Assembly (NCBI GenBank): GCA_022711495.1
Contig: JAKLEX010000001.1
Location: 225,389-289,388, forward strand
DNA length: 64,000 nucleotides
Direction: 5' to 3'
From: Patescibacteria group bacterium
GTDB taxonomy: Bacteria; Patescibacteriota; Minisyncoccia; Phycocordibacterales; JAACPR01
Below, in pieces: positions 2,846 to 19,631 of this stretch; position 1 is the first letter of the stretch; each line of letters opens with the position of its first letter. The notes under the pieces were generated by a model, which was not told the origin of the DNA, searched no databases, and was given only the letters and a program-made list of their open reading frames with translations. Made by a program: the position numbers and the translations under genes.

Positions 2846-2874
2846 TTGACAGACGGTGTAGTTTTTGTTAAAAT
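2846..2874 (+). promoter_or_regulatory. Sigma70-like promoter TTGACA-N17-TAAAAT upstream of 2946 gene
   Basis: TTGACA 2846-2851, 17-nt spacer, TAAAAT 2869-2874. AAAGGAG Shine-Dalgarno site sits before the ATG at 2946. Confidence 0.4.
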
Positions 2875-2945
2875 TCTCAGCAGAAAAGGTTAAGACTTCT
2901 TGAGCAACAAGCTCTGTCTGACCGAAAAAACAAAAGGAGAAAGAC

Positions 2946-3914: not shown

Positions 3915-3941
3915 GTTCTAAGTCGGTTAACCACAAACAGG

Positions 3942-3980
3942 GCGCATCAGCAATGATGCGCTCTTTCTTTTTGTTTTTTG
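3942..3980 (+). terminator. Rho-independent terminator
   Basis: GCGCATCA-gcaa-TGATGCGC hairpin followed by a T-run. Confidence 0.55.
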
Positions 3981-3998
3981 ATAAATTCAAATCCGTTC

Positions 3999-4027
3999 TT
4001 GACTCAAACCCTATAACATGTTATACT
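3999..4027 (+). promoter_or_regulatory. Sigma70-like promoter TTGACT-N17-TATACT upstream of 4122 gene
   Basis: TTGACT 3999-4004, 17-nt spacer, TATACT 4022-4027. A ~95-nt leader with two hairpins and a GGAAAGGAAGG Shine-Dalgarno site precedes GTG 4122. Confidence 0.4.
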
Positions 4028-4121
4028 CCACACTAGAGTAGTTGAGCCAACATCGGCTCAAAATTCAGGAGGTCGGTTAATTCCCGCCCACAGAGGCGGA
4101 TAACGGAAAGGAAGGTTCGTT

Positions 4122-5138
4122 GTGAAGAGAACAAAGGTAGTGAAATTGGGTGTCCACAGCTCGCCCCATCTGGACGAATTGGTGGCGGTCCATCTGCTTC
4201 GGAACTACGGGGAAGAGAAAATCCCCGGAGTTTCGACGGCAGTCCTGACTACATACGGCAAGACTGAGCTTCAGCAATTGTCGCCGGAAACAGCGGCAAT
4301 GCAGGGCATTCTTCTTGTCGGCATAGGCGGTGGAATGTTCGACGAGCACGGCCGACGCGGTTCGCGCCAGGATTGCGCGGCGACACTGGTCGCCAAGCAC
4401 CTGGGTCTGGACGAGGATCTGTTATGGCCGCGCTTTCTCCGGAACGTGTTCCTGGCGGACGCGGAAAACCGTGGTCCGTACACGTTCGTAGCGGAGCTCG
4501 TCAAAAAGCTCAACCGCTACTGGGTGGGCACCCTCGATCCGGAATTGCTGTATAAGCAAGTCGAACCGATCATTATCGCGCTTCGAGTTGAAGTTGAGCT
4601 TCTGGCTGAAGCCGAGCATCGTTTCCGCAAGGCCTACAAGCGGGAGATCAACGGCTACCAACTGGTGGCGGTGGACCAACTGGACAACGTCGAATTCCAG
4701 CACGTCGCAAACCGTGCCGGGGTCAACGTCGTCGTTCAGCGGGGGCGCGACGGGCTGACTCAGATTCTGATGAGGCACGCCTCGTCAGATGAACTGGACG
4801 TGCCCGGTCTGGCCGTTCGTATCCGCAAGGCGGAAATGGCCAAGTCCGGAATTCGCCCGAAGCGGTTTCTGGACGATCGCGCGCTGTCGGCGATGGGAAC
4901 TCTTTCCGATATACCCCAGTGGTATGTTGAGAAGGGGAACCTGTTAAACGGATCGGAATCTTTCCGGGACGTTCCGCCTTCGGGCATTTCGTTTGCCGAC
5001 CTGGTACATGTCGTTGAGAAGCACCTGCGCGAATTGGACGATGAGTCTGATCCGCGCGATTCGGCGGAAAAGTCGGGTAAATCGATTTGCGAAAGAGAAC
5101 CGGCCCCGACCGAAGAACTACCGGTGGATGGCGACTGA
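4122..5138 (+). CDS. Hypothetical protein, possible metal-dependent hydrolase (H-x3-H-x-D-E motif reminiscent of MYG1/UPF0160)
   Basis: GTG start with Shine-Dalgarno site. N-terminal VHSSPHLDELVAVHLL motif. GC-rich. Longest ORF among overlapping alternatives. Confidence 0.45.
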   Translation: MKRTKVVKLGVHSSPHLDELVAVHLLRNYGEEKIPGVSTAVLTTYGKTELQQLSPETAAMQGILLVGIGGGMFDEHGRRGSRQDCAATLVAKHLGLDEDLLWPRFLRNVFLADAENRGPYTFVAELVKKLNRYWVGTLDPELLYKQVEPIIIALRVEVELLAEAEHRFRKAYKREINGYQLVAVDQLDNVEFQHVANRAGVNVVVQRGRDGLTQILMRHASSDELDVPGLAVRIRKAEMAKSGIRPKRFLDDRALSAMGTLSDIPQWYVEKGNLLNGSESFRDVPPSGISFADLVHVVEKHLRELDDESDPRDSAEKSGKSICEREPAPTEELPVDGD

Positions 5139-5188
5139 ATTATATTCGCACCCTGACTGGCCAAAAATCAGTCAGTGAACTCACAAGG

Positions 5189-5225
5189 GGTCGAGAAAGC
5201 AAAACTTTCTCGGCCTCTTTTTTAT
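5189..5225 (+). terminator. Rho-independent terminator (plus strand)
   Basis: CGAGAAAG-caaaa-CTTTCTCG hairpin followed by a T-run. Confidence 0.5.
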
Positions 5226-5250
5226 TTACCGACAAAATATTTTCTAAAAA

Positions 5251-5295
5251 ATAAAAATCGGCGAGAAAGTGATTAAACCTTCTCGCCGATTCCGG
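5251..5295 (-). terminator. Rho-independent terminator (minus strand) for lipoprotein gene
   Basis: Reverse strand ATCGGCGAGAA...TTCTCGCCGAT hairpin followed by a U-run. Convergent with the previous terminator. Confidence 0.5.
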
Positions 5296-5311
5296 TTGCG
5301 ACCGGCAACGA

Positions 5312-5674
5312 TCAGCGTACCTCTACCCAATCGTCGTATATGTTGACGTGGTAGTTGTACAGATCGTCGTCGAATTCGGCGTGGAACTGTCTCGGTCCGC
5401 TCGGTCCCCAGATTACAAAACTCATCCTGAACTTCTCGCCCGGGTAGAGAGCTTTGGAATAGTAGCCGTCTTCGCCGGGCTCCAGGGATTCAACGAACGC
5501 GTTGCCCAGATAGACGTCCACTGCGTACTGAGTGTACGAGTACACGTCAACGCTTACGTATGTCTCGTAATCACCCTCGTAACGGTCCTCGCACCCGACC
5601 GTTCCACAGATCACAATCGCCATCACGCCGATTCCGACCAACACCGGCAAAAACTTCTGCAAAAGAGCCTTCAT
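5312..5674 (-). CDS. Putative lipoprotein (GC-rich island)
   Basis: Signal peptide with lipobox-like VICGTVGC. GC-rich codon usage. Terminator downstream. Confidence 0.5.
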   Translation of the reverse strand: MKALLQKFLPVLVGIGVMAIVICGTVGCEDRYEGDYETYVSVDVYSYTQYAVDVYLGNAFVESLEPGEDGYYSKALYPGEKFRMSFVIWGPSGPRQFHAEFDDDLYNYHVNIYDDWVEVR

Positions 5675-5794
5675 TGCGCACTCCCTTCTTGTTTTTTGCG
5701 CTACCTCTGTCTAGCACTATTATATCTTAATTATAGTAAAAGTCAACCACATTATATCCCCATACATTATTAGGACTTATGTTATAATTCAGAC

Positions 5795-5965
5795 ATGGAT
5801 ACAAACCCAAAAGACAATATTAATAAGATTTTAAACACCATTCCGATTGTTATCGGAGTGGTCGTGGCTGTCGTAGCTCTTCTTGGCATCGGAAGTATTC
5901 AAGTAATCTTGGCGATGCTGGGAATCGGCTTGTTTAGCACCGCGCTTGGAGAGTTGGTCAGCTAG
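5795..5965 (+). CDS. Small (56 aa) membrane protein, hypothetical
   Basis: ATG at 5795. Single long hydrophobic segment (IPIVIGVVVAVVALLGIGSIQVILAMLGIGLF). Not in the ORF track because it is under 60 aa. Confidence 0.3.
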   Translation: MDTNPKDNINKILNTIPIVIGVVVAVVALLGIGSIQVILAMLGIGLFSTALGELVS

Positions 5966-6051
5966 TCTTATTTACTACTTGAATAATTTCCAAGGACTCT
6001 TTATTTTGAGAGATTTTTTATGTAGCAGAAAGTATTTTTGGTAATTTCTGT

Positions 6052-6057
6052 TATAAT
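6052..6057 (+). promoter_or_regulatory. Extended -10 (TGtTATAAT) 10 nt upstream of lysS ATG (leaderless-type)
   Basis: TGTTATAAT at 6049-6057, ATG at 6067, no Shine-Dalgarno site. Confidence 0.4.
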
Positions 6058-6066
6058 CTATTTATC

Positions 6067-7587
6067 ATGAAAAAAGCAGAAAATTCAGCGCCTAACCGTC
6101 CCGCATCTGGTTCTCCAAAGGCAAGAGACGAGCGTCAAGATCGTCTAAAAAGACTTGAACTAATAAAATCCCTCGGTCTTGTTCCTTACGCTGATCGATT
6201 TGAGAAAACGCATTCAATCGCTCAAACCCGCGAAGCTAAAATGGGCGCCAAAGTCGCCACGGCCGGCCGAATTGTGTTGTTCCGCGACATGGGCAAAGTT
6301 TCTTTCGCTCATTTGCTTGATTTTTCCGGAAAAGTTCAAATCGTTCTAAAAATTGACGAGCTGGGCCAAGAAAATTATAAAAATTTCATTAAGATAATCA
6401 GCCTCGGCGACTTTATTGGTGTTCGGGGCGAGATGTTTAAAACCCAAAAAGGCGAAATTTCCATATTAGTCAAAGAATATGCTTTTTTGAGTAAAGCCTT
6501 GCGGCCTCTGCCGGAGAAATGGCACGGTTTGAAAGATCTTGAGACAAAATACCGCAAACGATATTTGGATTTGATCGCTAATTCGGATACGATGGCGCGA
6601 TTCAATTTCCGCAGTAATTTTATTTGGGAATTAAGAAAGTTTTATCAAGAAAACGGTTTTCTTGAGATTGATACGCCGGTTCTGTCTGGTTCGGCTTCTG
6701 GCGCTTTGGCTAAGCCATTTCAGACTCATTACAACGCTTTGGATCTGGACGTTTACTTACGTATTGCTCCGGAAATTCATTTGAAAGAAGCCGTCGCCGG
6801 GGGCTTTGAAAAGATTTTTGAAGTTGCTCGGGTTTTCCGCAACGAAGGCATGGATGCCAGTCACTTGCAGGAATTTTCAATGGTTGAGCATTACGCGGCT
6901 TATTGGAATTTTGAGGACAACATGAATTTCACCGAAAAGATGCTGACGACGTTGATTAAAAAATTAAAAGGCAGTTTGAAAATCAAAGTTCTAAATCGCG
7001 ACGACCAGCTGATTGAAGTGGATTTTTCTCTGCCTTGGCGTCGAGTCTCTTTTAGAGATTTACTGATGAAAGATTGCGGAATTGATGTTGATAAATGCTC
7101 TGACGCTAAAAGTTTGCGCGAAGCTATAAAGAAAAAGAAAATCGCCATTGAAGATATGGATAAGTTAGGACACGGAAACTTGATGGACGCTTTATATAAG
7201 AAGATTTCTCGTCCGAAGATTATCAATCCGACTTTCTTGATAAATCATCCGACCGATTTATCGCCTTTAGCGCGAAAAAATGACAAAAATCCGCTGGTTA
7301 CTGACCGTTTTCAATTGATTGTCAACGGCTGGGAAATTGTTAACGCTTACAGCGAATTAATTGATCCGATTGATCAGAGAGAAAGATTTGAAAAACAAAC
7401 CGTCGCCAAGAAAGCCGGCGATGAAGAGGCCATGCAGAAGGATGATGAATTTGTTGAAGCAATGGAATATGGCATGCCGCCAGTGTCGGGCTGGGGGATG
7501 GGCATAGAAAGAATCGTGGCTCTTCTGACGGAACAGCCAAATCTGCGCGACGTGGTGATGTTTCCTTTGTTGAAACCGAAAGAGTGA
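6067..7587 (+). CDS. lysS: Lysyl-tRNA synthetase, class II
   Basis: Class II motifs. C-terminal GMPPVSGWGMGIERIVALL...FPLLKP. 506 aa. Confidence 0.95.
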   Translation: MKKAENSAPNRPASGSPKARDERQDRLKRLELIKSLGLVPYADRFEKTHSIAQTREAKMGAKVATAGRIVLFRDMGKVSFAHLLDFSGKVQIVLKIDELGQENYKNFIKIISLGDFIGVRGEMFKTQKGEISILVKEYAFLSKALRPLPEKWHGLKDLETKYRKRYLDLIANSDTMARFNFRSNFIWELRKFYQENGFLEIDTPVLSGSASGALAKPFQTHYNALDLDVYLRIAPEIHLKEAVAGGFEKIFEVARVFRNEGMDASHLQEFSMVEHYAAYWNFEDNMNFTEKMLTTLIKKLKGSLKIKVLNRDDQLIEVDFSLPWRRVSFRDLLMKDCGIDVDKCSDAKSLREAIKKKKIAIEDMDKLGHGNLMDALYKKISRPKIINPTFLINHPTDLSPLARKNDKNPLVTDRFQLIVNGWEIVNAYSELIDPIDQRERFEKQTVAKKAGDEEAMQKDDEFVEAMEYGMPPVSGWGMGIERIVALLTEQPNLRDVVMFPLLKPKE

Positions 7588-7677
7588 ATCTGAAGTCGCT
7601 GGACTCTTAACGATACGGGGCCCGTGCTTTTGTGTTAAAATAATGGCAGTTGGAATTTATAAAGTTAATTTATTTCT

Positions 7678-9036
7678 ATGAACCGTTTTTATAAATTTGG
7701 CTTGATGTTCGTGTTGGCCGCGGCTCTGTTTTTTTCTGCCGCCAGATCAGTCCAAGCCTTGACAATGTGTAGTTTCACTCGAGATTTAACTGTTGGATCA
7801 AGTGGTGAAGATGTTCGCTGTCTGCAGCAATATCTGAATGCGGTTGGTTACACGATTGCTAACACGGGCGCTGGTTCGCTAGGCCAAGAGACAACTTATT
7901 TTGGAAATCTAACGGCACAAGCCGTGGCCAAATGGCAAGCAGGCAACGACATATCGCCGACGGCTGGATATTTTGGCACAATCTCTCGTGCCAGATACGC
8001 GGAGATTTTCCAAAGAGCGAATGATCCGGCCGGAGCCGACGCGCGGGCGGCTATAGCCGAGGCTTCTTCTTATATCGCTGAGGCACGTCGAGCCTTTAAT
8101 CAAGCGGATGGAGATGGGGCCGACCGAACAGAAGATATAATCAAGGCGACGTTTAGTGACTTATCTATTGCTTCCGATTTTTATCAAGATGGTGAATATA
8201 ACAAAGCCGAGGACTCTGCCTTAAGGGCTGTTAGAGGAGCCAAGTATGCTCTCGGGGCTTTAGATGACTCCAAAGATTATGAAGATAATAGGAGCGGGGC
8301 CAAAGAGGTTATTCAGAACACTGAAGACGCAATTAAAGACGCCGAAGATGCTATTGAAGATGCTGAAGAGGCCACAGATGAGTCTGAAGCAGACGATTAT
8401 GACATAGACGGGGCAAAAGATATTTTGGAAGAAGCCCAAGATCTATTGGAAGAATCTCAAGATCTATTAAACGAAGCCGAAGAAGCTTTTGACGATAGGG
8501 ATTATGATGAGGCGATTGACTCGGCCGAAGATGCACTAGCCTTAGCGACAGACGCTCAAGAAATTGCAGAAGATGCCGCAGATATTGCTGACGGGGATAT
8601 TGAATACGAAGACTATGATTCGGATTTTATGGTCCATGATAGTGATGATGACGACGAAAATGCCGTTGATCAAAACGACGAAGATGACGAAGATGATGAT
8701 GAGGACGACGATTCCGCCACGACAGACGATCAAATAACCGGACAGGCAACCTCAACAGTGGATACGTATAATAAAATAGTTCCAACACTGGTTCAAACTT
8801 ATGGCGGTAGTGGCGTGAGCCAAAGTAGCACCGCTAGTGAAAGCGGCACACAAAGTGGCATTGACGCGGGAAGTTCTAGTAATGACTCTGATGAGACAGA
8901 AGAAACTCCAGAGGAAGAGGCCGCTCAAATAAATGACTCCATAATTTATTCTGGTAATTCTGCCGGCGATTGGTATAACAACGGCATCCTTAATCCTGGG
9001 GGCTGTTCTGCGGGGGAATGTTCGTGGGGGACATAA
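7678..9036 (+). CDS. Secreted peptidoglycan-binding-domain protein with polyacidic repeat region (family member 1)
   Basis: Signal peptide. CSFTRDLTVGSSGEDVRCLQQYLNAVGY...YFG...AVAKWQ matches the PG_binding_1 pattern. Long D/E/A-rich repeats (FDDRDYDEAIDSAEDA etc.). Confidence 0.7.
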   Translation: MNRFYKFGLMFVLAAALFFSAARSVQALTMCSFTRDLTVGSSGEDVRCLQQYLNAVGYTIANTGAGSLGQETTYFGNLTAQAVAKWQAGNDISPTAGYFGTISRARYAEIFQRANDPAGADARAAIAEASSYIAEARRAFNQADGDGADRTEDIIKATFSDLSIASDFYQDGEYNKAEDSALRAVRGAKYALGALDDSKDYEDNRSGAKEVIQNTEDAIKDAEDAIEDAEEATDESEADDYDIDGAKDILEEAQDLLEESQDLLNEAEEAFDDRDYDEAIDSAEDALALATDAQEIAEDAADIADGDIEYEDYDSDFMVHDSDDDDENAVDQNDEDDEDDDEDDDSATTDDQITGQATSTVDTYNKIVPTLVQTYGGSGVSQSSTASESGTQSGIDAGSSSNDSDETEETPEEEAAQINDSIIYSGNSAGDWYNNGILNPGGCSAGECSWGT

Positions 9037-9109
9037 TTTTCTCTATTCTTATCTGCATGTTAAAATAATCATGCTTATCAGAAGCATTATTGGTTAATTT
9101 ATTTCAATT

Positions 9110-10315
9110 ATGAATAATCAAAGAAAAATAGTTTGGTTACTGACATTATTAGTTCTGCTTGTTGTTGGTGCGAATATTGCCGAAGCCGCCACGACTTGTA
9201 CTTTTACAAGAGACCTGGCTTTAGGTGATAACGGCGAAGACGTTCGTTGCTTGCAACAGTATTTAAATAGTGCCGGCTACACAATCGCAGCATCGGGCGT
9301 CGGTTCGCCTGGAAACGAAACAAGCTTGTTTAGAACTTTGACGGAGCAAGCGGTGATTAGGTGGCAAACAGCCAACGGTATTTCACCGGCTTCCGGATAC
9401 TTTGGTCCAAAGTCACAAGCAAAATATAATGCACTAATTTCTGGATCAAGTTCTGGCTCAAGTTCCAGCTCATCCGGCAGCTCGTCATCCAGTTCTTCCA
9501 GTAGCTCGTCCGGTTCATCCAGCTCCAGCTCTTCGTCAAGTAGCTCATCAGCTAACTCGGAGAGAAGCGAGGCCGAAGATACAATCTTAGAGGCTGTAGA
9601 CGCCATTTATGATGCCGAAGGGCAAATAGAAGATAGCGATGAAGATGAAGACGATATTGAGGATGCCGAAGAGATGTTAAAAGATGCTCGTGAAAATCTT
9701 TATAATGCCATTGAGGCGTATTTTGACGAAGATTACGATGATGCCATAGATTCAGCCGACGACGCCATTTCAGACGCCGAAGATGCTTATGAACAAGCCG
9801 GCGGGGAATCAGAAGAGGACGAAGCCGAGCAAGCCATTGACGACGCCGAGGACGCCTTAGACGCCGCCGAAGCCGAAATTGAGGAAGCGGACGACGATGG
9901 TGAGGAAGTCGGCGAGGCCGAAGATCTTTTTGACGAAGCTCAAGACTTGTTAGACGAAGCTGAAGAGGCTTTTGATGATGAGGATTATGACGAGGCTATT
10001 GATTTAGCCGAAGAGGCCGAAGATACGGCGGACGAAGCCGTCGACGCTATCGGTGAAGAAGGCGACGATGAAGAATCAGACGCCGAAGAAGCTATTGAAG
10101 ACGCCGAAGATGCCATTGATGCCGCCGAAGAGGCCATTGATGAATCAGACGCGGATGCTGATGACATAGAGGAGGCCGAAGATCTTGTTGACGAGGCTAA
10201 CGATTTGCTAGACGAAGCCGAAGAAGCCTTTGACGACGAAGATTACGACGATGCCATTGACGCTGCTGAAGAAGCTCAAGAAAAAGCCGAAGAAGCCGAA
10301 GATTTGGTTGATTAG
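9110..10315 (+). CDS. Secreted peptidoglycan-binding-domain protein with poly-Ser tract and polyacidic repeats (family member 2)
   Basis: Same N-domain (CTFTRDLALGDNGEDVRCLQQYLNSAGY). Poly-Ser run of about 35 aa. Repeated acidic modules EEAEDLxDEAxDLLDEAEEAFDDEDYDEAID. Confidence 0.7.
   Translation: MNNQRKIVWLLTLLVLLVVGANIAEAATTCTFTRDLALGDNGEDVRCLQQYLNSAGYTIAASGVGSPGNETSLFRTLTEQAVIRWQTANGISPASGYFGPKSQAKYNALISGSSSGSSSSSSGSSSSSSSSSSSGSSSSSSSSSSSSANSERSEAEDTILEAVDAIYDAEGQIEDSDEDEDDIEDAEEMLKDARENLYNAIEAYFDEDYDDAIDSADDAISDAEDAYEQAGGESEEDEAEQAIDDAEDALDAAEAEIEEADDDGEEVGEAEDLFDEAQDLLDEAEEAFDDEDYDEAIDLAEEAEDTADEAVDAIGEEGDDEESDAEEAIEDAEDAIDAAEEAIDESDADADDIEEAEDLVDEANDLLDEAEEAFDDEDYDDAIDAAEEAQEKAEEAEDLVD
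9443..9552 (+). repeat. Poly-serine coding simple-sequence tract (AGY/TCN codon repeats)
   Basis: About 110 nt encoding SSGSSSSSSGSSSSSSSSSSSGSSSSSSSSSSSS. Confidence 0.8.
10061..10315 (+). repeat. 255-bp direct repeat copy 1 (3' end of paralog CDS), ~99% identical to 13128-13382
   Basis: Base-by-base comparison shows only 2 mismatches over 255 nt, including the stop codon. Confidence 0.9.
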
Positions 10316-10352
10316 TCTCGGCGAGTTTCTCTAAGCATTATTGGTTTAATAA

Positions 10353-10386
10353 AACCACCAGAAAATATGGTGGTTTTATTTTTTTA
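10353..10386 (+). terminator. Rho-independent terminator
   Basis: AACCACCA-gaaaata-TGGTGGTT hairpin followed by a T-run. Confidence 0.6.
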
Positions 10387-10448
10387 TCGGAATCTGTCTA
10401 TGTTATACTGTGTGTTAGTTAAAAACACATTAACTTAATTTAATCTTT

Positions 10449-13382
10449 ATGAAATATCTTAGAAAATTAATCCAGGCGTCTGTATTATTAGTATTTTTTG
10501 TCTCTAATATTCGTGTTGAGGCAGTATCGATTTGTACTTTTACCAGAGATCTGACAGTCGGATCGGTCGGCGAAGACGTGCGCTGCTTGCAACAATATTT
10601 AAATAGCACCGGTTACACCATTACCGAATCAAATGAGGGCTCACTAGGACAAGAGACCACATATTTTGGAACTTTAACCGCGCAAGCTTTAGCAAGATGG
10701 CAGTCAAACAACGGAGTATCGCCGGCCACCGGATATTTCGGTCCAGTTTCAAGAGCGAAATATAGCTCCTTCACTTCCGGAGTCTCTAATGGCGCCGGAG
10801 GAACTGTGAGCGGACAAAGAGAAGCCGCCTCTTCTATAAATGAGGCCGTTTATACCATAAGCGAAGTTTATGATAAGGTCAGAAATTCAAAAAATAGCAA
10901 AGCTGTAGGACTCTGGGAAGATGCCGACGAATTGTTGGATGATGCGGAGGCAGCTTATAACAAAAAGCAATATGATCTAGCTTTAGATTTTGCGGAGGCG
11001 GCAATCGAAAAAGCCGATGAGGCAGAATCGGCTCTTAGTAGTAAGACTGCTTCAACTAGCGAAGCTAAATCTGAAGCCAGAGACGCTATCGCAGACGCTG
11101 AAAAAGCCATTGACGACGCCAAAGATGAGATTGACGAAGCTGATGACGATGGCGATGACGTTGATGAAGCTGAAAGTATCTTAGACGACGCCAGGGAAGC
11201 TTTAAATGACGCCGAGGAAGCCTACGACGATAAAGATTATGATGAAGCGATAGAATTGGCTGAAGAGGCTCAAGATGCGGCAGACGAGGCCGTTGATGCT
11301 ATCGGCGAAGAACCTGAAGATGACGATGATGAAGATGATGAAGATGATGAACAGATCTCGGTTAAACTTCTGGCTAACGGAAAGTCTGGAACGGTTAAAA
11401 CCAATTCAGACAGTGTCGCACTAACATGGACGTCTAATGCTAAATATTGCGAAGCTTCGTCGTCATATTCCGCCGCCGGCAGCTCATCTAGTTTGGCAAA
11501 TAAGACAATAAGCATCTTGCCAATCGGTGATTCCAATACTGCTGGAGTGGGCAATCCAACCAACTGCACGAAAAATTGCCTTGGTTATAGGAAAAGCTTA
11601 AAAGATCTTCTAACCGCGGCCAATATAAAGACCGACTTTGTTGGTTCAAAATCTGACGGTAATTTCACCGACAATCAACACGAGGGCTGGTCTGGCGAAG
11701 GTATTTCTAAAATTCAAAGCCGAATATCTGGCGGCATTCTTGGAACTCTCAAACCAGATATCGCCCTGCTTCTTATTGGAAGCAATGACATGTGGATTTC
11801 TCTTTCTGATCGTAGCCCGGTCTCTGATAACAAGGCTAACTACTGGGTATCGCAACTTGGAAAATTGCTAGATGCTATGTATGGCAAAAAAAGTGACATG
11901 CATGTTATTGTCGCCAAACCGGCGACACCTAGGAGCGCCTCTGGACCTCTGGCCATTTATCGCGATGGTATTGATACTTTGGTTAAACAGAAAAAAACCG
12001 ATGGACAAAAAATCTCCTCAGTTGATTTGATGGGAGCGAAAAATGATGGCACCCATTATACCTCTACCGGTTTTGAGACTGTGGCCAATTTGTGGGCCGC
12101 TGAAATCAAGAGCATTGTTTCCGGTAGTTCTGCGATATATACCGCGCCAAGTTGGTCGGGCCAGAAGAGTGCAAAGGGCAGTAAATCTTTTTCTTTAGCT
12201 CCGGGCTCGGAAACGACTTTCAGTTTAAGGTGCGGGGATTCTTCCTCGTCTTTGACGGCTAGGAGTAATGTTACTGTTAAAGTCAGCTCAAGCGCCAGTT
12301 CATCGTCCGGCGGCGACTCCGGTGATGACGCCGTTGACCTTTATGAAGGCATGATTGAACAGTTGGTTGAGACCATGGGTGAAGGATTTGATGAAGTTGG
12401 TATACCGCAACCTTTTGCTTGTCCTTTGAAGACTGAATCTGATGATGACCGACTAGTTAATTTCTCTACAGTTAAGGGATTGCTTGGTAAATCTTCCGGA
12501 AGTACTCCTGCTGGATTCTCGTCCAATGGTCAAGCGGACTACCAAGTAAGTATTCCTGCCGGCACGTATAAAGTGTCCATGACAACCTATGACAATCACT
12601 CGGAACACGGCGGTCAGGGCCAGCGCAATGAGAAAGTCTATCTTGAGTTATATGATGGTGCCGATGGAGACATGATTGCGAAGACCGACTCTACGGATGA
12701 TATTTCAGAAAGTTCTAATAGTGTTACCACGATCATCGCTGACGCTTTGGAAGTAGACAGTCAAGTCAAAATGTTAAGAACTATTCACGCGGCGTATCCG
12801 AATGGTTCATCGGCCGAAAGCGTATTTCCAATCTGTACGTTGTTTGAAAGCACAGACGAAGACCCGGAGGATGACGAAGAAAAGGAGGCCGAAGACGCTG
12901 TTGATAGAGCCATAGAACTGATAGACGAAGCTAAAGACGCGATTGACGACTCCGACGCCTCGGACAGGAAAATTGAATTGGCTGAAGATATTATTGATGA
13001 CGCGGAAGATCTTGTTGACGATGCAACGGAGGCCATTGATGATGAGGATTATGACGAAGCGATAGAATTGGCCGAAGAGGCTCAAGATTTTGCTAAGGAG
13101 GCGGCCGATATCGTCGGTGAGAAAATCGGCGACGATGAAGAATCAGACGCCGAAGAAGCTATTGAAGACGCCGAAGATGCCATTGATGCCGCCGAAGAGG
13201 CCATTGATGAATCAGACGCGGATGCTGATGACATAGAGGAGGCCGAAGATCTTGTTGACGAGGCTAACGATTTGCTAGACGAAGCCGAAGAAGCCTTTGA
13301 CGACGAAGATTACGACGATGCCATTGACGCTGCTGAAGAAGCTCAAGAAAAAGCCGAAGAAGCGGAAGAGTTGGTTGATTAG
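10449..13382 (+). CDS. Large secreted protein: PG-binding domain + acidic repeats + SGNH/GDSL hydrolase domain + second acidic repeat array (family member 3)
   Basis: Signal peptide and CTFTRDLTVGSVGEDVRCLQQYLNSTGY. SGNH blocks GDSNTAG (block I), EGWSG (II), GSNDMW (III), DGTHYT (V). Acidic modules on both sides. Confidence 0.7.
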   Translation: MKYLRKLIQASVLLVFFVSNIRVEAVSICTFTRDLTVGSVGEDVRCLQQYLNSTGYTITESNEGSLGQETTYFGTLTAQALARWQSNNGVSPATGYFGPVSRAKYSSFTSGVSNGAGGTVSGQREAASSINEAVYTISEVYDKVRNSKNSKAVGLWEDADELLDDAEAAYNKKQYDLALDFAEAAIEKADEAESALSSKTASTSEAKSEARDAIADAEKAIDDAKDEIDEADDDGDDVDEAESILDDAREALNDAEEAYDDKDYDEAIELAEEAQDAADEAVDAIGEEPEDDDDEDDEDDEQISVKLLANGKSGTVKTNSDSVALTWTSNAKYCEASSSYSAAGSSSSLANKTISILPIGDSNTAGVGNPTNCTKNCLGYRKSLKDLLTAANIKTDFVGSKSDGNFTDNQHEGWSGEGISKIQSRISGGILGTLKPDIALLLIGSNDMWISLSDRSPVSDNKANYWVSQLGKLLDAMYGKKSDMHVIVAKPATPRSASGPLAIYRDGIDTLVKQKKTDGQKISSVDLMGAKNDGTHYTSTGFETVANLWAAEIKSIVSGSSAIYTAPSWSGQKSAKGSKSFSLAPGSETTFSLRCGDSSSSLTARSNVTVKVSSSASSSSGGDSGDDAVDLYEGMIEQLVETMGEGFDEVGIPQPFACPLKTESDDDRLVNFSTVKGLLGKSSGSTPAGFSSNGQADYQVSIPAGTYKVSMTTYDNHSEHGGQGQRNEKVYLELYDGADGDMIAKTDSTDDISESSNSVTTIIADALEVDSQVKMLRTIHAAYPNGSSAESVFPICTLFESTDEDPEDDEEKEAEDAVDRAIELIDEAKDAIDDSDASDRKIELAEDIIDDAEDLVDDATEAIDDEDYDEAIELAEEAQDFAKEAADIVGEKIGDDEESDAEEAIEDAEDAIDAAEEAIDESDADADDIEEAEDLVDEANDLLDEAEEAFDDEDYDDAIDAAEEAQEKAEEAEELVD
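13128..13382 (+). repeat. 255-bp direct repeat copy 2
   Basis: See 10061-10315. Confidence 0.9.
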
Positions 13383-13404
13383 ATTTCTTTAGTCTGAAAC
13401 TGAC

Positions 13405-13436
13405 AAAAACCGCCCTGAAGGCGGTTTTTGTTTTTA
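13405..13436. terminator. Bidirectional rho-independent terminator between convergent genes
   Basis: AAAACCGCC-ctgaa-GGCGGTTTT with A/T runs on both sides. Confidence 0.6.
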
Positions 13437-13443
13437 CCCAGAC

Positions 13444-14358
13444 TTACCGTCTAACAAAACTGCGGACAATCTTAAATAAAATCCAGATAAGAAACGCAAT
13501 AACCAAATACAACAAGATTTTATATTCCAAAATTCCGTAAAGGGTCTTGAAGAGATAGAGTTGCCCAGTCTTCAAAAATATTTGTCTTGATAACATTCGT
13601 CCTTCGGCTGGAGCGGACAATTCCGCTCGTCCCTCAACAATCGTCTGTTTAATAGCTTCGTTGCGAGCCTTTAGGTCCGCAAGCTCTTCTTCCAGAGCGA
13701 GAATTTTGCCTTCAATTTTGTCGCTCAAAGAATCGGCGCCGGTGTTGATACTTTGGAGGGCACTGTCGGCGGTTTCTTTGATGGTACTGACGACTTGTCC
13801 TCCGATATCGTTCTCATCATCTTCTTTCGTATCTCGGTTATCCTCATCGTCCTCTTCATCGCCGATACCGTCATCGTCGGAGTCATAATCAACAAAAATT
13901 TCTTCCGATTCTATGATGTTGTTTTTTATTTCTACGTCGCTTCGCCAACCGCTAGAGGTATTTTTTTTGACATTAGTGAGTTTGGCGTAAATCTGATGAG
14001 TGCCGTATTCTGGAGCAAAATCAGCCCAGCCTTCAATAAGTCGGCCGTTGAGAGCGGAGAATTCTTTGGTCTCAATTCTCTTGCCGTTGTCATAGAATTC
14101 TATCTGACCGGTGATGTCATCGCCGGATTGATTTTGAAAAGCCACGTAAATACGAGCATTTTCATCGGCGAAAAGAGGAAATTTTGAATACCAAATTCCG
14201 CTGACAAAACCGGCGTTAGTCTTCACCGCGGATTCGGCCGCTTCAACTTTTTCTGCGGCCAAGACTTTTCCCACTATTAGAACCTTTTCCGCGTTGATTA
14301 ATAGAAGGGATAGACTTAATATTGCAAAAACACTGAAAAATTTAAAGTTTGTCATCAT
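13444..14358 (-). CDS. Secreted acidic coiled-coil protein with C-terminal TM anchor, hypothetical
   Basis: N-terminal signal peptide. D/E-rich segment. Coiled-coil segment (LALEEELADLKARNEAIKQ). C-terminal hydrophobic helix. Confidence 0.5.
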   Translation of the reverse strand: MMTNFKFFSVFAILSLSLLLINAEKVLIVGKVLAAEKVEAAESAVKTNAGFVSGIWYSKFPLFADENARIYVAFQNQSGDDITGQIEFYDNGKRIETKEFSALNGRLIEGWADFAPEYGTHQIYAKLTNVKKNTSSGWRSDVEIKNNIIESEEIFVDYDSDDDGIGDEEDDEDNRDTKEDDENDIGGQVVSTIKETADSALQSINTGADSLSDKIEGKILALEEELADLKARNEAIKQTIVEGRAELSAPAEGRMLSRQIFLKTGQLYLFKTLYGILEYKILLYLVIAFLIWILFKIVRSFVRR

Positions 14359-14821
14359 ATTTTTTTATCAACCATAACGTGATGCCGATTCCTAAAACTG
14401 CACCAGCTAAGATTTGTGTTAGCGTGTGAACTCTTAAGATTAGCCGGCTGGCGACTATGGCTAAAATGGCAAGTGTCAGAATCAAAGTTGCGGTGCTCTT
14501 GAATAAGCGGCTTTTGTTTGAACGCCAGATGTAGTTAGCTAAAAAAGTCAGAAGGAAAAAACCGATCGCGGTGTGTCCGCTCGGAAAAGCATAATCGTTC
14601 AGTCCAATTAGGGCGTCGGCCGGGCGCGATATTTTAGTGACGTCTTTTATTAGCAGAGTCAAAATTGAAGTGAGCAGGGTGGACAGGGCGAAAACTTTTA
14701 AGGCGGGGAATCTTTTCTTGGCCATCAGCCAAAGCGCGATGGCAAAAATAAACCCAAAGATGATTTCCCAACTGGAGATGAAATAGACGTAATATGAGGC
14801 CGTTACTAGAAGGGAATTCAT
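14342..14821 (-). CDS. PAP2-family phosphatase (undecaprenyl-diphosphatase-like)
   Basis: Motifs KxxxxxxRP (KDVTKISRP), PSGH, SRxxxxxHxxxQ. About 5 TM helices. Confidence 0.7.
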   Translation of the reverse strand: MNSLLVTASYYVYFISSWEIIFGFIFAIALWLMAKKRFPALKVFALSTLLTSILTLLIKDVTKISRPADALIGLNDYAFPSGHTAIGFFLLTFLANYIWRSNKSRLFKSTATLILTLAILAIVASRLILRVHTLTQILAGAVLGIGITLWLIKKYDDKL

Positions 14822-14927
14822 GGGGATATTATAGCAACTTTTTACTGTATATTGGCATTATCTGTTGTCATTAATATTTTTGAATTCTCTAGGCTTATAT
14901 AATATATTCTGGTAAAATTAAACCGTT

Positions 14928-15263
14928 ATGGGAAATGAGGAAGGAAAGGCCGATAGAGACTATTTTGTTTTAGCAATTCTGTTTATGATAGCTGTGGCTT
15001 TCTGGGTTAGTTTCTTTCGGTATTTTATCAATTTAGACTACAACATATTGCTGACTATTGAATGCGACCCAGAAGTTTCAAGCTGTGTCACTGACGGAGA
15101 ATATTTTTATGATCGGTTTTTGGTCAAGGCAAAAACCATAGAAGATTATTGCGGTGAAAAACAAGACGAAGAATGTATTTTAAAGTTATATGAACAAAAT
15201 CGGGCGGAAAAAATACCCTGTGAAGAAGACCTAGAAGATTGGGAGGAATGTACAAGTCCATAA
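14928..15263 (+). CDS. Small membrane-anchored Cys-rich hypothetical protein
   Basis: One N-terminal TM helix. Six Cys in the C-terminal half. Confidence 0.35.
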   Translation: MGNEEGKADRDYFVLAILFMIAVAFWVSFFRYFINLDYNILLTIECDPEVSSCVTDGEYFYDRFLVKAKTIEDYCGEKQDEECILKLYEQNRAEKIPCEEDLEDWEECTSP

Positions 15264-15327
15264 ATAATTCAAGAGCAATGTTATCATATGAGCTTTTTGC
15301 CCAACGTACTTTTGTGGTTTTATTACT

Positions 15328-16491
15328 ATGAGAGAAATAAGAGAAAAGCCAAGCCTACTGATTTTGGGAGTTTCTGGCGGTGTTGCTGGCGCATTTTTAC
15401 AAATTTTCAGGCAGTACAGAAATAACTTTTCAGAAGTTATCTTGTTGGATAAGGACGATAAAATTTTGCGCTCTGGTCAAATTGACCTTGTCAGAGATAA
15501 ATACTCTTTTATAAATCAGGACATAGTTTTACAAAATATAGAGCTAGTTTTGGCAGATATAAAACACAAACATGATATCTCTATCGTTCTAGATCTGACA
15601 GATTGTGAGACTTTTCCGATATTACAAGCGGCCGACAAACTTGGTCTAAGCTACTTGAATTGTTCTTTAAATAATGGTGATGAATCGATGAAAAATTTCG
15701 TCCGAGACTATAAAAGTTTCACTCAAAAGTTTAAGAACAATGCCCACTTGTTATCAATAGGGATGAATCCCGGAATTATCAACCACCTGGTTGTCAGGGG
15801 AGTTCTGGAATATGGAATACCAAAAGAATTTGTTGAAATTGAGTATGAGACGGGTTTCCCAGAGAAAGACGTCGGTCGCCCTTTTATAACTTGGTCTAGA
15901 AAGCAATTTTTACTAGAGTCAGTTTTATCTGGTTCCGGTTATTGTGGTTCCGGCGGAAAGTATGTGGAATCTAAAAGTTCTGCGATAGAGCACCCAATTA
16001 AGACTGAAGAATTTTTATCGCCAATAAAAAAATTTGATTCCTATCCTTTGGGGATGATTGTTCCTCATGATGAGATTATTTCAATGTCTAGAATTATCGA
16101 AGTTCCTGGCAGATTTGTCTATGCCATACACCCGGTTTCTTTGTCTAGGTTAAGGGAAATTTTCAATAAAAAGGGGAACGTTGTTGAATCAGATATAGAT
16201 CTTTTAGATGGAGTTACAAAGAAGTTAATTGGGTCTGATCTGATAGGCGTCTGGTTATTCTATGACGATAAAAAGATTTGCTATTTTTGTGAAGTCAACC
16301 ACAAAGACGTCTCCGGGACAAACGCCACTTTATTTCTAGTTGCCGTGGGCGTTCTGGCGGCGCTCATGGATTTTATTAGCAATCCTTTGTTAGAAAACGG
16401 CGTCTCTTTCGTTAATGAGTTAAATAGTAAAAATTTTCAGAGGTTTGTATCTAGATACGTCAAGATTAATAAGATTGAGGTGAAAAAATAG
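15328..16491 (+). CDS. Saccharopine-dehydrogenase-like NAD(P)-binding protein (possibly polyamine biosynthesis type), tentative
   Basis: N-terminal LLILGVSGGVAG Rossmann-like glycine motif. GMNPGIINH resembles the G-x-[DN]-P-G-x-x-N motif of the saccharopine/carboxynorspermidine dehydrogenase family. Confidence 0.4.
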   Translation: MREIREKPSLLILGVSGGVAGAFLQIFRQYRNNFSEVILLDKDDKILRSGQIDLVRDKYSFINQDIVLQNIELVLADIKHKHDISIVLDLTDCETFPILQAADKLGLSYLNCSLNNGDESMKNFVRDYKSFTQKFKNNAHLLSIGMNPGIINHLVVRGVLEYGIPKEFVEIEYETGFPEKDVGRPFITWSRKQFLLESVLSGSGYCGSGGKYVESKSSAIEHPIKTEEFLSPIKKFDSYPLGMIVPHDEIISMSRIIEVPGRFVYAIHPVSLSRLREIFNKKGNVVESDIDLLDGVTKKLIGSDLIGVWLFYDDKKICYFCEVNHKDVSGTNATLFLVAVGVLAALMDFISNPLLENGVSFVNELNSKNFQRFVSRYVKINKIEVKK

Positions 16492-16527
16492 ATTGTGCCA
16501 CCAGACTTGCATTTTCTGTGCGGTTAT

Positions 16528-16553
16528 GTTATAATTATCCTAGAAGGGAGGTG
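16528..16553 (+). promoter_or_regulatory. TGTTATAAT extended -10 plus GGGAGGTG Shine-Dalgarno site upstream of TTG start 16561
   Basis: TATAAT 16530-16535. Shine-Dalgarno site 16546-16553. Confidence 0.35.
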
Positions 16554-16560
16554 AAGTTCG

Positions 16561-17115
16561 TTGAAATTGGACAGATCCTATTGGATAAGGACCCTGTCTG
16601 CGCACGGACTGCTGTCTGCTACTGACTACGCGTTTGATAACTGGATCTACCCAGCCGTCTTGATTTGGCTGGGTGTGATTAACGGATGCGTTGTCATGAC
16701 GATGGCCAGCATGGTGTTGTGCGCAGGGTTTCTGGCCGTTTATGAACGGATGAAGATCGATTGGCTTGGAGTCAATGCTCTAGAGGTGGTTAAGGAGCAT
16801 GGTCAATCGTGGGTTCGCCGCTTAGACGCAGCCAACATCTTGATTAGGGTGTTTGCCTGGATTCCGACTCGTATTTTTCTGGTTGTCCTTTGGGCAGTCA
16901 AGAAAAACGACCTGTTGGCGTTTCTGGCATTCTCTCTATATGAAGATGCTTTCAAAACGACCGCCTTTCTCCGAAAGGGAAAGTTTGGTCGTTTTGGGCG
17001 AAAGGATGTAGGAATCTTTTTCGCCTCTCTTGTGATATCGAATCTGTACTGGACAGTTCGGTGGACTGTCATAATTGGTATCATTAAGAGAATTTACCAT
17101 TGGGTTATGACCTAA
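16561..17115 (+). CDS. Integral membrane protein, hypothetical
   Basis: TTG start with strong Shine-Dalgarno site. 4-5 TM helices. Terminator downstream. Confidence 0.45.
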   Translation: MKLDRSYWIRTLSAHGLLSATDYAFDNWIYPAVLIWLGVINGCVVMTMASMVLCAGFLAVYERMKIDWLGVNALEVVKEHGQSWVRRLDAANILIRVFAWIPTRIFLVVLWAVKKNDLLAFLAFSLYEDAFKTTAFLRKGKFGRFGRKDVGIFFASLVISNLYWTVRWTVIIGIIKRIYHWVMT

Positions 17116-17117
17116 CC

Positions 17118-17156
17118 AGCGCAACGACGAGGAATCGTTGCGCTGTTTTATTTTGT
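17118..17156 (+). terminator. Rho-independent terminator
   Basis: CAGCGCAACGA-cgaggaa-TCGTTGCGCTG followed by a T-run. Confidence 0.6.
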
Positions 17157-17198
17157 GGTGTTAACTTTTTTGCTAAGATGTCTTATAATTCACGATAA

Positions 17199-17972
17199 AT
17201 GGTAGAAGATATATACACAGATCCAAAAGAAGCTGTCGCTGAACTCAAAAGGCGCCAGAAAAACCCCGAGTTGATAAAAAAAGTAGAGGAGTATTTAAAA
17301 GGTGATATTCCAGAGCCGTTGGTTAATTTTTTAGAGAAACCGAAAATGGTTTTGTTTCGAAATATTTTTACTCCTGACTATGAGTTGGACATTTTTTTAA
17401 AGTACGCGAAAGAGATCGGCGCCCAACCCATTCTCTTTGAATATACGGACGATATGTTTGTCGCTAAGAATGAAGATAAATATGCCCTTGGCAAGCTCAT
17501 GTTTTATTTAAATACGGATAAAGAGGGGCATGTAAATACAAAAAATTTGAAGATCATTGATTTTAATGATTCCGAACGGAAAAACATTCGAGACATAAAA
17601 ACTTTATGGGGAGAATCGTTAGTAGATTTTCATCATAGGATATTAGCCCATTTTTTTTCTGACAAAAAACTACATATTTATGATTGTTCAGCCTGGTTTC
17701 ATCGAAATGGGGGTCACCCGGATGGTTATTATTATAAAATATTTTCTTTATTTATTTGTCACGCCATAATGTTCGAGAATTTTAGAAGCTCTGGTACAGA
17801 GGGGGAGTTTTTTAGGAAAATATTCTTACCGATTTATTCTGAAACAGTCAATTTCTTTGGTTTTAAACCAATAATTTGCCGGATTCAACCCCCTGAAGAA
17901 GAGAATAATCGAAAATGGTGGGGATATCCAAAAGACAGAATGGAAGAATTCTTATCGAGCTCATCAGACTAA
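17199..17972 (+). CDS. Hypothetical protein
   Basis: 257-aa ORF with GTCTTATAAT box upstream. No recognisable motif. Confidence 0.45.
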   Translation: MVEDIYTDPKEAVAELKRRQKNPELIKKVEEYLKGDIPEPLVNFLEKPKMVLFRNIFTPDYELDIFLKYAKEIGAQPILFEYTDDMFVAKNEDKYALGKLMFYLNTDKEGHVNTKNLKIIDFNDSERKNIRDIKTLWGESLVDFHHRILAHFFSDKKLHIYDCSAWFHRNGGHPDGYYYKIFSLFICHAIMFENFRSSGTEGEFFRKIFLPIYSETVNFFGFKPIICRIQPPEEENNRKWWGYPKDRMEEFLSSSSD

Positions 17973-18026
17973 CCTATCAAGAGATACTTTTGCTTATTTA
18001 TTATCTGTAATATAATGTGACGAAGC

Positions 18027-19631
18027 ATGTCTGATCTTGTTAGATATATTGAATATTGCTCAGATATTTTTGTTGGCCAAATTTCACCTACTCTAGTATA
18101 TTATTCACACATACCGATAATAATATTATCGCTAATCTTTGGTTTGCATTTCATCTTAAGGGATAGGCGAAACCGGCTCTTTAGTTATTTTCTAAGTCTT
18201 AGCTTGTTAATCTCTCTCTGGAATATTAATGACCTTTTTATGTGGACCATGTCTTATGACAGTTCTCTGACTATGTTTGCTTGGTCGACCTTGGAACTGA
18301 TTGAAGTTTCTTTCTTCTTTGTTTCTACCGGTCTAGTTTATGTATTCTTCTTTGCCAAAAGATTGCCGAAATGGCTTAATCTCGTTTTTATACTTCCGAT
18401 AGTTCCAGTATTTTATTACACAATAACTGGACAGATTCTTCAAAACTATAACGCTATCGTCTGCGAGGCATCAGAAAATTCTAACATCATCAATCAGGTC
18501 GTCCTCTTTACAGATTTGTTTTATATTTTGTCGATCATTATTCTTTATGTTTGGTCTGTGATAAAAAATAAAAGGCAAGAGATATTAAAAAACACCCTAT
18601 TCTTTGCTGGGTTGTTATTATTTCTTGTCTTATACCTAATATCTCTATATGGAGCTGATTATCTTGAAAACTATAACTGGTCATTAATCGCACTGGCAGG
18701 TCTACCAGTGTTCTTGGGGGTAGTTGGCTTTATCGCCGTCCGATTCAATGCGTTTAAATTCAAAATTTTAGGCTCTCAAATCTTAGTTTTTCTATCTATA
18801 TTTATCGTTGGTTCACAATTTGTATTTATCACTAACAATATCAATAGGATACTGAACATTGTCACCTTGGTCATACTATTAATTGGTGGCATTCTCCTTA
18901 TCCGCTCCGTCCGAAAAGTTGACGATCAGAAAGAACAGCTAGCACTCGCCAACACTGAACAAGAAAACTTAATTCATTTCATCTCGCACCAAGTTAAAGG
19001 CTTCTTCACCAAATCCAGAAACATCTTTGCCACTATGAAGGACGAATCCGACTACGTTCCGGAAAATCTTCGGGCCTTTGTTGATGAGGGGCTTCGTTCC
19101 GACAGCGAGGGCATCAAAGTCGTTACGGATATTTTAAGCGCCGCCAATTTGAAGACCGGCAACATTCAATTCTCCAAAGATCGACTGTACATAAATATGC
19201 TGATTGGAAATATCATTGATCACAACAAGTCTCTGGCTGATAAAAAAGGCGTGGCTCTCAAATATAATGCGCCGAATAAAATGATTGAGTTTATCGGTGA
19301 CGAAGATCGTCTGAAAGACGCTATCGGCAACATTATCAACAACTCCGTTAATTACACGATGTCCGGCGAGATTGTTGTTACTCTGACGGATAGTCCAAAA
19401 CAAGTAAAAATTGTCATAAAAGATACCGGCGTCGGTCTTTCCGAGAAAGATAAGGCGCGACTATTTAGCTCGGGCATTCGCGGAGAAGACTCTTTGAAAT
19501 ACAACGTCAACAGCACCGGTTATGGCCTCTACATCGCCAAGCGTGTCATTGAGGGTCACGGCGGAACTATCACCGCCGAATCGGAAGGACGTGACCGGGG
19601 CTCAACCTTTACCATAATCTTGCCGAAATAA
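18027..19631 (+). CDS. Sensor histidine kinase (multi-TM sensor + HisKA/HATPase_c)
   Basis: About 7 N-terminal TM helices. H-box HFISHQVKGF. N box NIINNSVNYT. G1 DTGVGL. G2 GYGLYIAKRVIEGHGG. Confidence 0.85.
   Translation: MSDLVRYIEYCSDIFVGQISPTLVYYSHIPIIILSLIFGLHFILRDRRNRLFSYFLSLSLLISLWNINDLFMWTMSYDSSLTMFAWSTLELIEVSFFFVSTGLVYVFFFAKRLPKWLNLVFILPIVPVFYYTITGQILQNYNAIVCEASENSNIINQVVLFTDLFYILSIIILYVWSVIKNKRQEILKNTLFFAGLLLFLVLYLISLYGADYLENYNWSLIALAGLPVFLGVVGFIAVRFNAFKFKILGSQILVFLSIFIVGSQFVFITNNINRILNIVTLVILLIGGILLIRSVRKVDDQKEQLALANTEQENLIHFISHQVKGFFTKSRNIFATMKDESDYVPENLRAFVDEGLRSDSEGIKVVTDILSAANLKTGNIQFSKDRLYINMLIGNIIDHNKSLADKKGVALKYNAPNKMIEFIGDEDRLKDAIGNIINNSVNYTMSGEIVVTLTDSPKQVKIVIKDTGVGLSEKDKARLFSSGIRGEDSLKYNVNSTGYGLYIAKRVIEGHGGTITAESEGRDRGSTFTIILPK

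Follow-up and report, generated by a model that had tools for sequence, protein, structure and literature searches.

A probable recent gene conversion between two tandem genes for predicted peptidoglycan-binding proteins in a Patescibacteria genome

Introduction

How do two neighboring genes that have otherwise diverged to saturation come to end in nearly the same 255 nucleotides (nt)? The question is raised by a 64,000-nt stretch of the genome of an uncultured Patescibacteria group bacterium (contig JAKLEX010000001.1, positions 225,389 to 289,388), which we refer to as the window. It encodes four paralogs (g1 to g4) of a family with predicted signal peptides and peptidoglycan-binding domains. 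Three of these, g1, g2, and g3, form a tandem array on the same strand, and the last module of g2 recurs almost letter for letter at the end of g3. An initial annotation of the window attributed this repeat to recent gene conversion and further proposed that ongoing recombination gives cassette-like variation of a surface protein. Our analysis indicates that the repeat probably reflects a single recent ectopic (interlocus) gene conversion, in which one DUF4398-type module of g2 was copied into g3.

Results

A near-identical tract between two diverged genes

The repeat was confirmed as annotated: a direct repeat of 255 nt, with 253 matching positions, occupies the 3' ends of both paralogs and runs through their stop codons. 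A repeat search and a base-by-base comparison agreed on this. The two genes and the two repeat copies are listed here, with positions counted from the start of the window.

9110-10315, forward strand: g2, paralog 2, 401 amino acids (aa); predicted signal peptide, PG_binding_1 domain (aa 41-101), poly-Ser linker, and three acidic three-helix modules (m1, aa 147-231; m2, aa 231-316; m3, aa 317-401)
10449-13382, forward strand: g3, paralog 3, 977 aa; predicted signal peptide, PG_binding_1 (aa 41-99), modules m1-m2 (aa 119-287), SGNH/GDSL hydrolase domain (~aa 356-548), and, in the C-terminal part, an unnamed ~150-aa domain (~aa 650-805), m3 (aa 806-891), and m4 (aa 893-977)
10061-10315, forward strand: repeat copy A, the last module (m3) of g2 plus its TAG stop; exact block 10061-10296
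13128-13382, forward strand: repeat copy B, the last module (m4) of g3 plus its TAG stop; exact block 13128-13363

The first 236 nt of the two copies are identical without interruption. Both mismatches fall within the last 19 nt (P = 0.005 under random placement): a silent C/G difference at 10297/13364 and a T/G difference at 10303/13370 that exchanges Asp for Glu. Both copies are in frame, with the stop codons at 10313-10315 (g2) and 13380-13382 (g3), and their starts lie 3,067 nt apart on the same strand. The repeat length is not arbitrary but corresponds to exactly one module unit of ~85 aa.

The borders of the tract are abrupt. In 30-column segments of the g2/g3 alignment, identity is 0.3 to 0.87 upstream (0.57 just before 10061), 0.9 to 1.0 within the tract, and 0.3 to 0.57 past the stop. 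The module upstream of the tract is homologous between the two genes (~62 to 75% nt identity), and a 3-nt indel lies immediately 5' of the tract. On the 3' side, only 19 nt of homology separate the exact block from flanks that are unrelated and that carry a separate hairpin for each gene:

10348-10390, forward strand: terminator-like hairpin with a T-run 3' of g2 (13-pair stem 10348-10380, then TTTTTATCGG); unique to copy A
13405-13435, no strand assigned: hairpin AAAAACCGCC-CTGAA-GGCGGTTTTT, then GTTTTT, between the convergent g3 and 13444-14358 (reverse strand); read directly from the sequence

Since the downstream flanks differ at once and have their own hairpins, the tract is a patch rather than the product of a crossover. 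The exchange was also nonreciprocal, as each gene has kept its own flanks and both open reading frames (ORFs) are intact.

The near-identity extends to silent sites, which are homogenized to the same degree as nonsynonymous ones. Within the tract the proportion of synonymous differences (pS) is 0.021, whereas it reaches 0.63 to 0.80 over the 110 N-terminal codons in every paralog pair and 0.70 between module m2 of g2 and module m3 of g3; the annotation's statement that the paralogs are diverged elsewhere was thus correct. Likewise, the last modules of g2 and g3 are 98% identical, while the remaining module pairs share 20 to 74% of amino acids and 59 to 76% of nucleotides. Taking the highest of these other nucleotide identities (76%) as background, an identical run of 236 nt has a probability of ~7e-29.

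These numbers bear on the idea that strong purifying selection, or convergence on the C-terminal module, made the two copies alike without any recombination. The C-terminal motif "...AEEAEDLV" is indeed conserved in the g2 orthologue of a related locus (L007, described below) and in module m2 of g4. However, 47 of ~48 synonymous sites in the tract are the same, against saturation even in the more conserved peptidoglycan-binding domain, and this refutes the idea, to which we assign practically no chance. Recombination, and not selection at the protein level, made the copies alike. Recent gene conversion, as the annotation proposed, best explains 236 to 255 nt of near-identity, silent sites included, between paralogs that are otherwise saturated.

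Copy number in public assemblies

A repeat of this kind may also be made by an assembler, so we examined how independent assemblies treat it. Contigs were found through the flanking genes, with 12 contigs per flank. Five contigs from different samples, including JGI 3300010429 (a 552-kb contig), JGI 3300025902, and ENA ERZ795054, resolve the arrangement g1-g2-g3; sequence comparison of three of these showed 100% identity to the window.

In six other contigs, the assembly breaks off precisely k bases inside the repeat, on one side or the other. In MEGAHIT k141 assemblies (ERZ27257480/ERZ27257455), the left-hand contigs extend exactly 141 nt into the block, and their right-hand partners start exactly 141 nt ahead of the first base that tells the copies apart. 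The same break pattern occurs at 123 nt in JGI 3300009771 and at 30 nt in Logan SRR5007146. The breaking contigs (233 kb and 88 to 156 kb) come from three further data sets. Contig ends that lie k nt into the block on both sides indicate a branch of the de Bruijn graph at an exact repeat longer than k, with both sequence contexts present in the reads, and this makes a duplication introduced by the assembler very unlikely. The scenario that the annotation named as its own refutation, a single copy duplicated during assembly, is therefore contradicted by block ends that behave as branch points at k = 141, ~123, and ~30.

One contig departs from this picture. In JGI 3300025715, the 36-kb contig Ga0209310_1000624 (L168/L175) matches window positions 4613-10296 fused to 13364-21358 and differs in no other way. 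It shows an exact repeat-to-repeat loss of 3,067 bp, lacks g3, and encodes a hybrid 401-aa g2 that carries the last 19 nt of g3 (ending in "AEELVD") and adjoins a 304-aa gene. This contig could be either an assembler shortcut or a genuine deletion variant. Together with the six contigs that end in the repeat, it bears out the annotation's warning of an assembly hazard.

The g3-less contig also allows a more skeptical reading, in which the genome has a single copy of the block and either the g3 segment was misthreaded (from a co-occurring strain or a circular by-product) or the collapsed form is the true one. The g3 segment is joined to the contig only through the repeat, and the 236-nt block is longer than every k used and than a typical read. 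Against this, the block has two versions of its 3' end, each with its own unique flank, and two unique sequences lead into it. Furthermore, contigs break from both sides in the three further data sets, and all five resolved assemblies agree. The 3' untranslated region of g2 is continuous into the promoter region and ORF of g3, and the g3 segment shares the family features of the rest of the array. We therefore consider an assembly artifact very improbable and treat both copies as real.

Donor and recipient

The closest species representatives are two loci, L007 and L008 (the latter on metagenome-assembled genome [MAG] contig CAYWTD010000031.1), whose LysRS is 81% identical to that encoded in the window. 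L007 has a single g2 orthologue of 396 aa, located beside the same neighbors (a 304-aa acidic membrane protein and PAP2). Its three modules pair one to one with m1, m2, and m3 of g2 (53, 64, and 74% aa identity, respectively), and its last module is the nearest outside relative of the tract (74% aa, 76% nt). More widely, >200 Patescibacteria proteins, mostly of ~400 aa, combine PG_binding_1 and DUF4398 as g2 does. At loci with LysRS identity of 72% or less, no family member was found beside LysRS.

The phylogenetic signal differs along g2. Module m3 of g2 is nearer to m4 of g3 than to m3 of L007, whereas m1 and m2 of g2 pair with L007 and not with g3; this incongruence is measured against one outgroup, L007, which has no g3 orthologue.

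The relationships of g3 are of another kind. Its N-terminal part and its modules m1-m2 most closely resemble those of g4 (65% aa identity for module 1). A word-index search of 5.8 billion proteins, in which the best 8,000 candidates were scored, returned only peptidoglycan-binding-domain matches to full-length g3 and no full-length relative. When the middle 518 aa were searched exhaustively against 1.84 billion representatives with HMMER, the two middle domains were found only in separate proteins; SGNH domains 45 to 54% identical to that of g3 are numerous in other proteins. By these comparisons g3 is a lineage-specific mosaic. The conserved architecture of g2 and the orthology of its last module to that of L007, set beside the unique mosaic structure of g3, indicate that the tract is native to g2 and secondary in g3. 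We infer that the direction of conversion was from g2 to g3.

Conversion or module insertion

A simple sequence of events would account for these observations. The last module of g2 would have served as a template during recombinational repair or replication, presumably in a process dependent on RecA-type homologous recombination. It would have overwritten the homologous last module of g3, 3,067 bp away on the same strand, leaving a perfectly identical 236-nt patch (10061-10296 = 13128-13363). The final 19 nt, including the stop, would probably be g3's own older homologous end. The identical blocks now form a direct repeat that is able to delete g3 and that certainly misleads short-read assemblers.

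Alternatively, nothing was overwritten. The last module of g2, with its stop, may have been appended to g3 by partial duplication through illegitimate or microhomology-mediated recombination while the mosaic was being built. This fits several features of the locus: g3 is clearly a mosaic (a g4-like N terminus, the SGNH domain, another domain, and g2-like C-terminal modules), the identity runs out at the stop codon or close to it and the 3' flanks are not shared, and the 5' flanking homology is weak and broken by an indel. However, the clustering of both mismatches in the last 19 nt is expected if the end is older g3 sequence. Moreover, module m3 of g3 has the signature of a penultimate module, ending in "...DIVGEK" where m2 of g2 ends in "DAIGEE" and m2 of the L007 orthologue in "DEIGSG", and its alignment with m2 of g2 is collinear up to the tract. 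An insertion would in addition need a chance in-frame junction precisely at a module boundary. The mismatches and the penultimate signature together suggest that an existing module was overwritten rather than a new one appended, and g3 thus appears to have had a terminal module before the event. We regard insertion as unlikely.

It is important to note that several points weigh against gene conversion as set out above. Flanking homology is poor for classical RecA-mediated conversion on both sides: ~57 to 87% over 90 nt plus the 3-nt indel at the 5' border, and just 19 nt at the 3' border. RecA, RecFOR, and RuvABC were found in 0 of the 47 ORFs scanned, in a search confined to the 64-kb window. 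Our searches found no unconverted g3 allele and no g3 orthologue, so that the pre-conversion end of g3 is inferred and not observed. The outgroup L007 favors neither of the end variants, GCC GAA GAT or GCG GAA GAG, as the ancestral one, and since the nearest relative has only 81% LysRS identity, the timing is coarse. Finally, the copy number is judged from the behavior of assemblies. With these points taken into account, we still hold conversion from g2 to g3 to be the probable explanation.

Similar events in related loci

Two related loci contain comparable tracts. In L008, adjacent family members of 536 and 582 aa share 465 nt that are 100% identical (4443-4907 and 6143-6607), beginning 42 nt before the ATG, reaching through codon 141, and covering the signal peptide, the peptidoglycan-binding domain, and a Thr-rich linker; the remainder of the two genes is unrelated. 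This 5' tract mirrors the 3' tract of the window. The L008 genes lie on a short contig (8 kb) from a co-assembly. In L115, a g2 homologue from another metagenome, modules m2 and m3 (8190-8326 and 8444-8581) are 95.7% identical over 138 nt, with 44 identical residues, which is homogenization of modules within one gene. Such recurrent, sporadic homogenization in the family looks like ordinary concerted evolution.

Sequence variation and cassettes

The initial annotation went beyond conversion to ongoing recombination with cassette-like variation, and this part was not supported. Among the four paralogs of the window, self-comparison yields one recent tract only, and it yields only four complete genes, each with a start codon, a signal-peptide-like N terminus, and a peptidoglycan-binding domain; silent partial cassettes are not among them. 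No sequence variants were found. The annotation had suggested looking for recombinants across strains or populations, and among the assemblies recovered there were none: the fetched loci are 100% identical apart from the one collapse, and so the assembled contigs contain no within-population mosaics. A codon-degenerate pattern for a 44-nt part of the tract had 0 matches in a collection of metagenome contigs, but that collection evidently does not contain the source contigs and is uninformative on variants. In 90% identity clusters, g1 and g3 have one member each, and the exact g2 sequence lies outside that collection.

A stronger form of the same idea is programmed variation, in which the family members serve as cassettes and their repeated recombination alters an exposed wall protein, for instance in the interaction of an episymbiont with its host or with phages. 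The paralogs do share exchangeable modules, their products are probably extracellular, and both the identical 5' ends in L008 and the intragenic homogenization in L115 could be taken in its favor. On the other hand, truncated or promoterless cassettes are absent, and one recent tract in four paralogs is few. The 12 contigs, from several samples, differ only in the arrangement of the g3-less contig. A second gene encoding PG_binding_1 occurs in the fetched flanks of only 6 of 80 loci with g2 homologues. Domain searches of the window found no invertase, recombinase, or retroelement near the tract. Moreover, the event itself lowers diversity: conversion makes two proteins more alike, which is homogenization and not diversification. 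We give programmed variation hardly any weight.

Architecture of the protein family

The remaining two members of the family are the following.

7678-9036, forward strand: g1, paralog 1, 452 aa; predicted signal peptide, PG_binding_1, one clear acidic module (aa 206-305), and a Ser/Thr/Asp-rich tail
46761-48563, reverse strand: g4, the distal fourth paralog, 600 aa; predicted signal peptide, PG_binding_1, three acidic modules, and a Cys-rich C-terminal domain

Module m2 of g4 has 74% nt identity to the tract and is unconverted.

The N termini of all four paralogs, as read by eye, resemble signal peptides, with a hydrophobic core followed by A-x-A. All four proteins match PG_binding_1 (PF01471) at 35.6 to 42.1 bits (35.6 for g1), against a gathering score of 23, with agreement of the profile and the fold, and the Cys pair C30/C47 is invariant in 56 homologues. 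The annotation's term "surface protein" is accordingly a reasonable one, although the surface location itself is predicted from these N termini and from PG_binding_1.

The ~85-aa modules are 55% Asp plus Glu and 23% Ala. At the nucleotide level they form a ~255-nt repeat family (D2) with ~7 units between 8.3 and 13.4 kb and 60 to 71% nt identity. They match DUF4398 (PF14346) at 39.6 and 41.7 bits (gathering score, 27.9) and have a three-helix fold like that of PDB 4fm3. An AlphaFold model of g2, built from the 56 homologues, has a mean predicted local distance difference test (pLDDT) score of 88.6 and comprises the peptidoglycan-binding domain, a disordered linker, and nine confident helices in a 3 x 3 grouping, i.e., three three-helix modules. 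A Foldseek search against the PDB returned no significant match. The g2 linker (9440-9550, aa ~112-146, with poly-Ser at 115-143) is encoded by ~35 Ser/Gly codons and has pLDDT of <50. Its counterpart is rich in Asn/Ser in L007 and in Thr in L008. Hits of the acidic helices to HEPN, DUF1771, CENP-B_dimeris, and ApoLp-III were weak, at or below the gathering score, and were rejected as compositional.

The middle of g3 matches Lipase_GDSL_2 (34.1 bits; gathering score, 32.9) and Lipase_GDSL (28.5 bits; gathering score, 23.6), which places it among the SGNH/GDSL hydrolases. The ~150-aa domain that follows (12396-12863, aa ~650-805) has no Pfam match and recurs in many proteins of 500 to 1,300 aa. 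Its start, "Y..MIEQLVETMG", resembles "YNQSVEELVATMG" at the start of the C-terminal region of g4.

DUF4398 is a family that is uncharacterized in any organism. In Leptospira, LipL71/LruA combines DUF4398 with a peptidoglycan-binding LysM domain (PMC5406399), and the window family likewise joins DUF4398 to a peptidoglycan-binding domain. Compared with LipL71 and with PA2901 of Pseudomonas aeruginosa (PDB 4fm3), however, the proteins described here have one to four modules in tandem and are far more acidic (55% D+E), and their modules sit on PG_binding_1 instead of LysM or OmpA. A literature search (DUF4398; candidate phyla radiation [CPR] plus PG_binding_1) found nothing on this protein family. 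From their domains and composition, the family products are predicted to be secreted, peptidoglycan-binding, and polyacidic. They might form wall-anchored polyanionic helical rods, which in g3 might tether an SGNH esterase to peptidoglycan.

Genomic neighborhood

The window is an ordinary chromosomal stretch. Its genes include those for LysRS, MurC/D-type ligases, a P-type ATPase, phosphoketolase, acetate kinase, glycogen genes, VanY, and M14 peptidases, and domain searches of the window found no transposase or integrase. Proteins of the family are on record as MAG proteins of Candidatus Paceibacterota bacterium (HRY31197.1/HRZ34415.1 and others).

Downstream of g3, the hairpin at 13405-13435 is likely a bidirectional terminator; it was not among the results of a consensus terminator scan. 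The gene at 13444-14358 (reverse strand) encodes a 304-aa protein that starts with a signal or anchor, contains an acidic Asp/Glu stretch, and has a hydrophobic segment at its C terminus. This gene overlaps a PAP2 phosphatase gene at 14342-14821 (reverse strand). This pair is kept beside the g2 orthologue in L007 at 60 to 69% aa identity and may therefore be functionally linked to the wall-protein gene. Near g4, a perfect 38-nt palindrome recovered by self-BLAST (46709-46746, 15 nt downstream of the g4 stop, in the gap between g4 and the ORF at 46108-46632) is probably a terminator hairpin.

Elsewhere, the GC content is 0.51 to 0.52 at 2001-6000 and ~0.42 in the rest of the window. The ORFs in the GC-rich stretch, 2946-3914 and 4122-5138, lack Pfam matches; a counterpart of the first, with 47% identity, lies upstream of LysRS in L007. 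Two M14 carboxypeptidase paralogs lie in tandem (51450-52340 and 52354-53265, both on the reverse strand). With these, a VanY D-Ala-D-Ala carboxypeptidase gene (38152-39054, reverse strand), and Mur ligases (22130-24932), the window is rich in cell wall genes.

Discussion

Ectopic gene conversion and concerted evolution are known in bacterial paralogs such as tufA/tufB, rRNA operons, and repeated surface-protein genes. As in conversion of the tufA/tufB type, the event between g2 and g3 left a short nonreciprocal patch, silent sites included, between diverged paralogs on one replicon, and both genes were retained. It differs from those cases in that the patch is one module of a multimodule gene, abuts the stop codon, and has almost no 3' homology, and in that the host is a CPR bacterium with a reduced genome. 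Events of this kind are already well known, and the present case adds another instance of concerted evolution in tandem paralogs. Our full-text literature search found nothing describing gene conversion in Patescibacteria; the terms co-occur in five papers, but never in a title or abstract.

Cassette systems of antigenic variation, such as Neisseria pilE/pilS, Borrelia vlsE, and Anaplasma msp2, have one expression site, many silent partial cassettes, and high-frequency heterogeneity. The likeness to these systems lies in segmental conversion between related sequences that encode exposed proteins. Unlike them, g1 to g4 are all complete, one event was detected, and no variants were found.

The repeat also behaves as expected for deletion between direct repeats or collapse of a de Bruijn graph: it measures 236 nt, its copies are 3 kb apart, contigs end k nt into it, and one contig has a repeat-to-repeat deletion. 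It is a documented weak point, at which the same strain appears resolved, broken, or without g3 in public data. Differences in gene content between MAGs at this locus, such as the presence of g3 or a hybrid g2, may consequently be artifacts.

For the organism, the probable conversion would mean that homologous recombination acts on wall-protein genes in a CPR bacterium with a small genome, and that sequence exchange continues between g3, a mosaic enzyme gene specific to this lineage, and g2, the conserved founder of the family. The more interesting by-product may be the attention drawn to a widespread, uncharacterized, and extremely acidic family of predicted wall-binding proteins in Paceibacteria. 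A bolder reading, which we offer as speculation and consider quite unlikely as a whole, joins these threads. The ~400-aa protein with PG_binding_1 and three DUF4398 modules would be a wall-anchored polyanionic rod; where its paralogs have multiplied, recombination of modules would regularly build wall-tethered enzymes; and the presence or absence of g3 would be a real, repeat-mediated polymorphism. The recombination part draws on the tract in the window, the identical 5' ends in L008, the homogenization in L115, and the g3-less, deletion-type contig. If it were true, the g3 product, which carries the SGNH esterase, would count among these retailored enzymes, and the rod would be a protein counterpart of teichoic acids, acting as a cation reservoir, a spacer, or an interface with hosts or phages.

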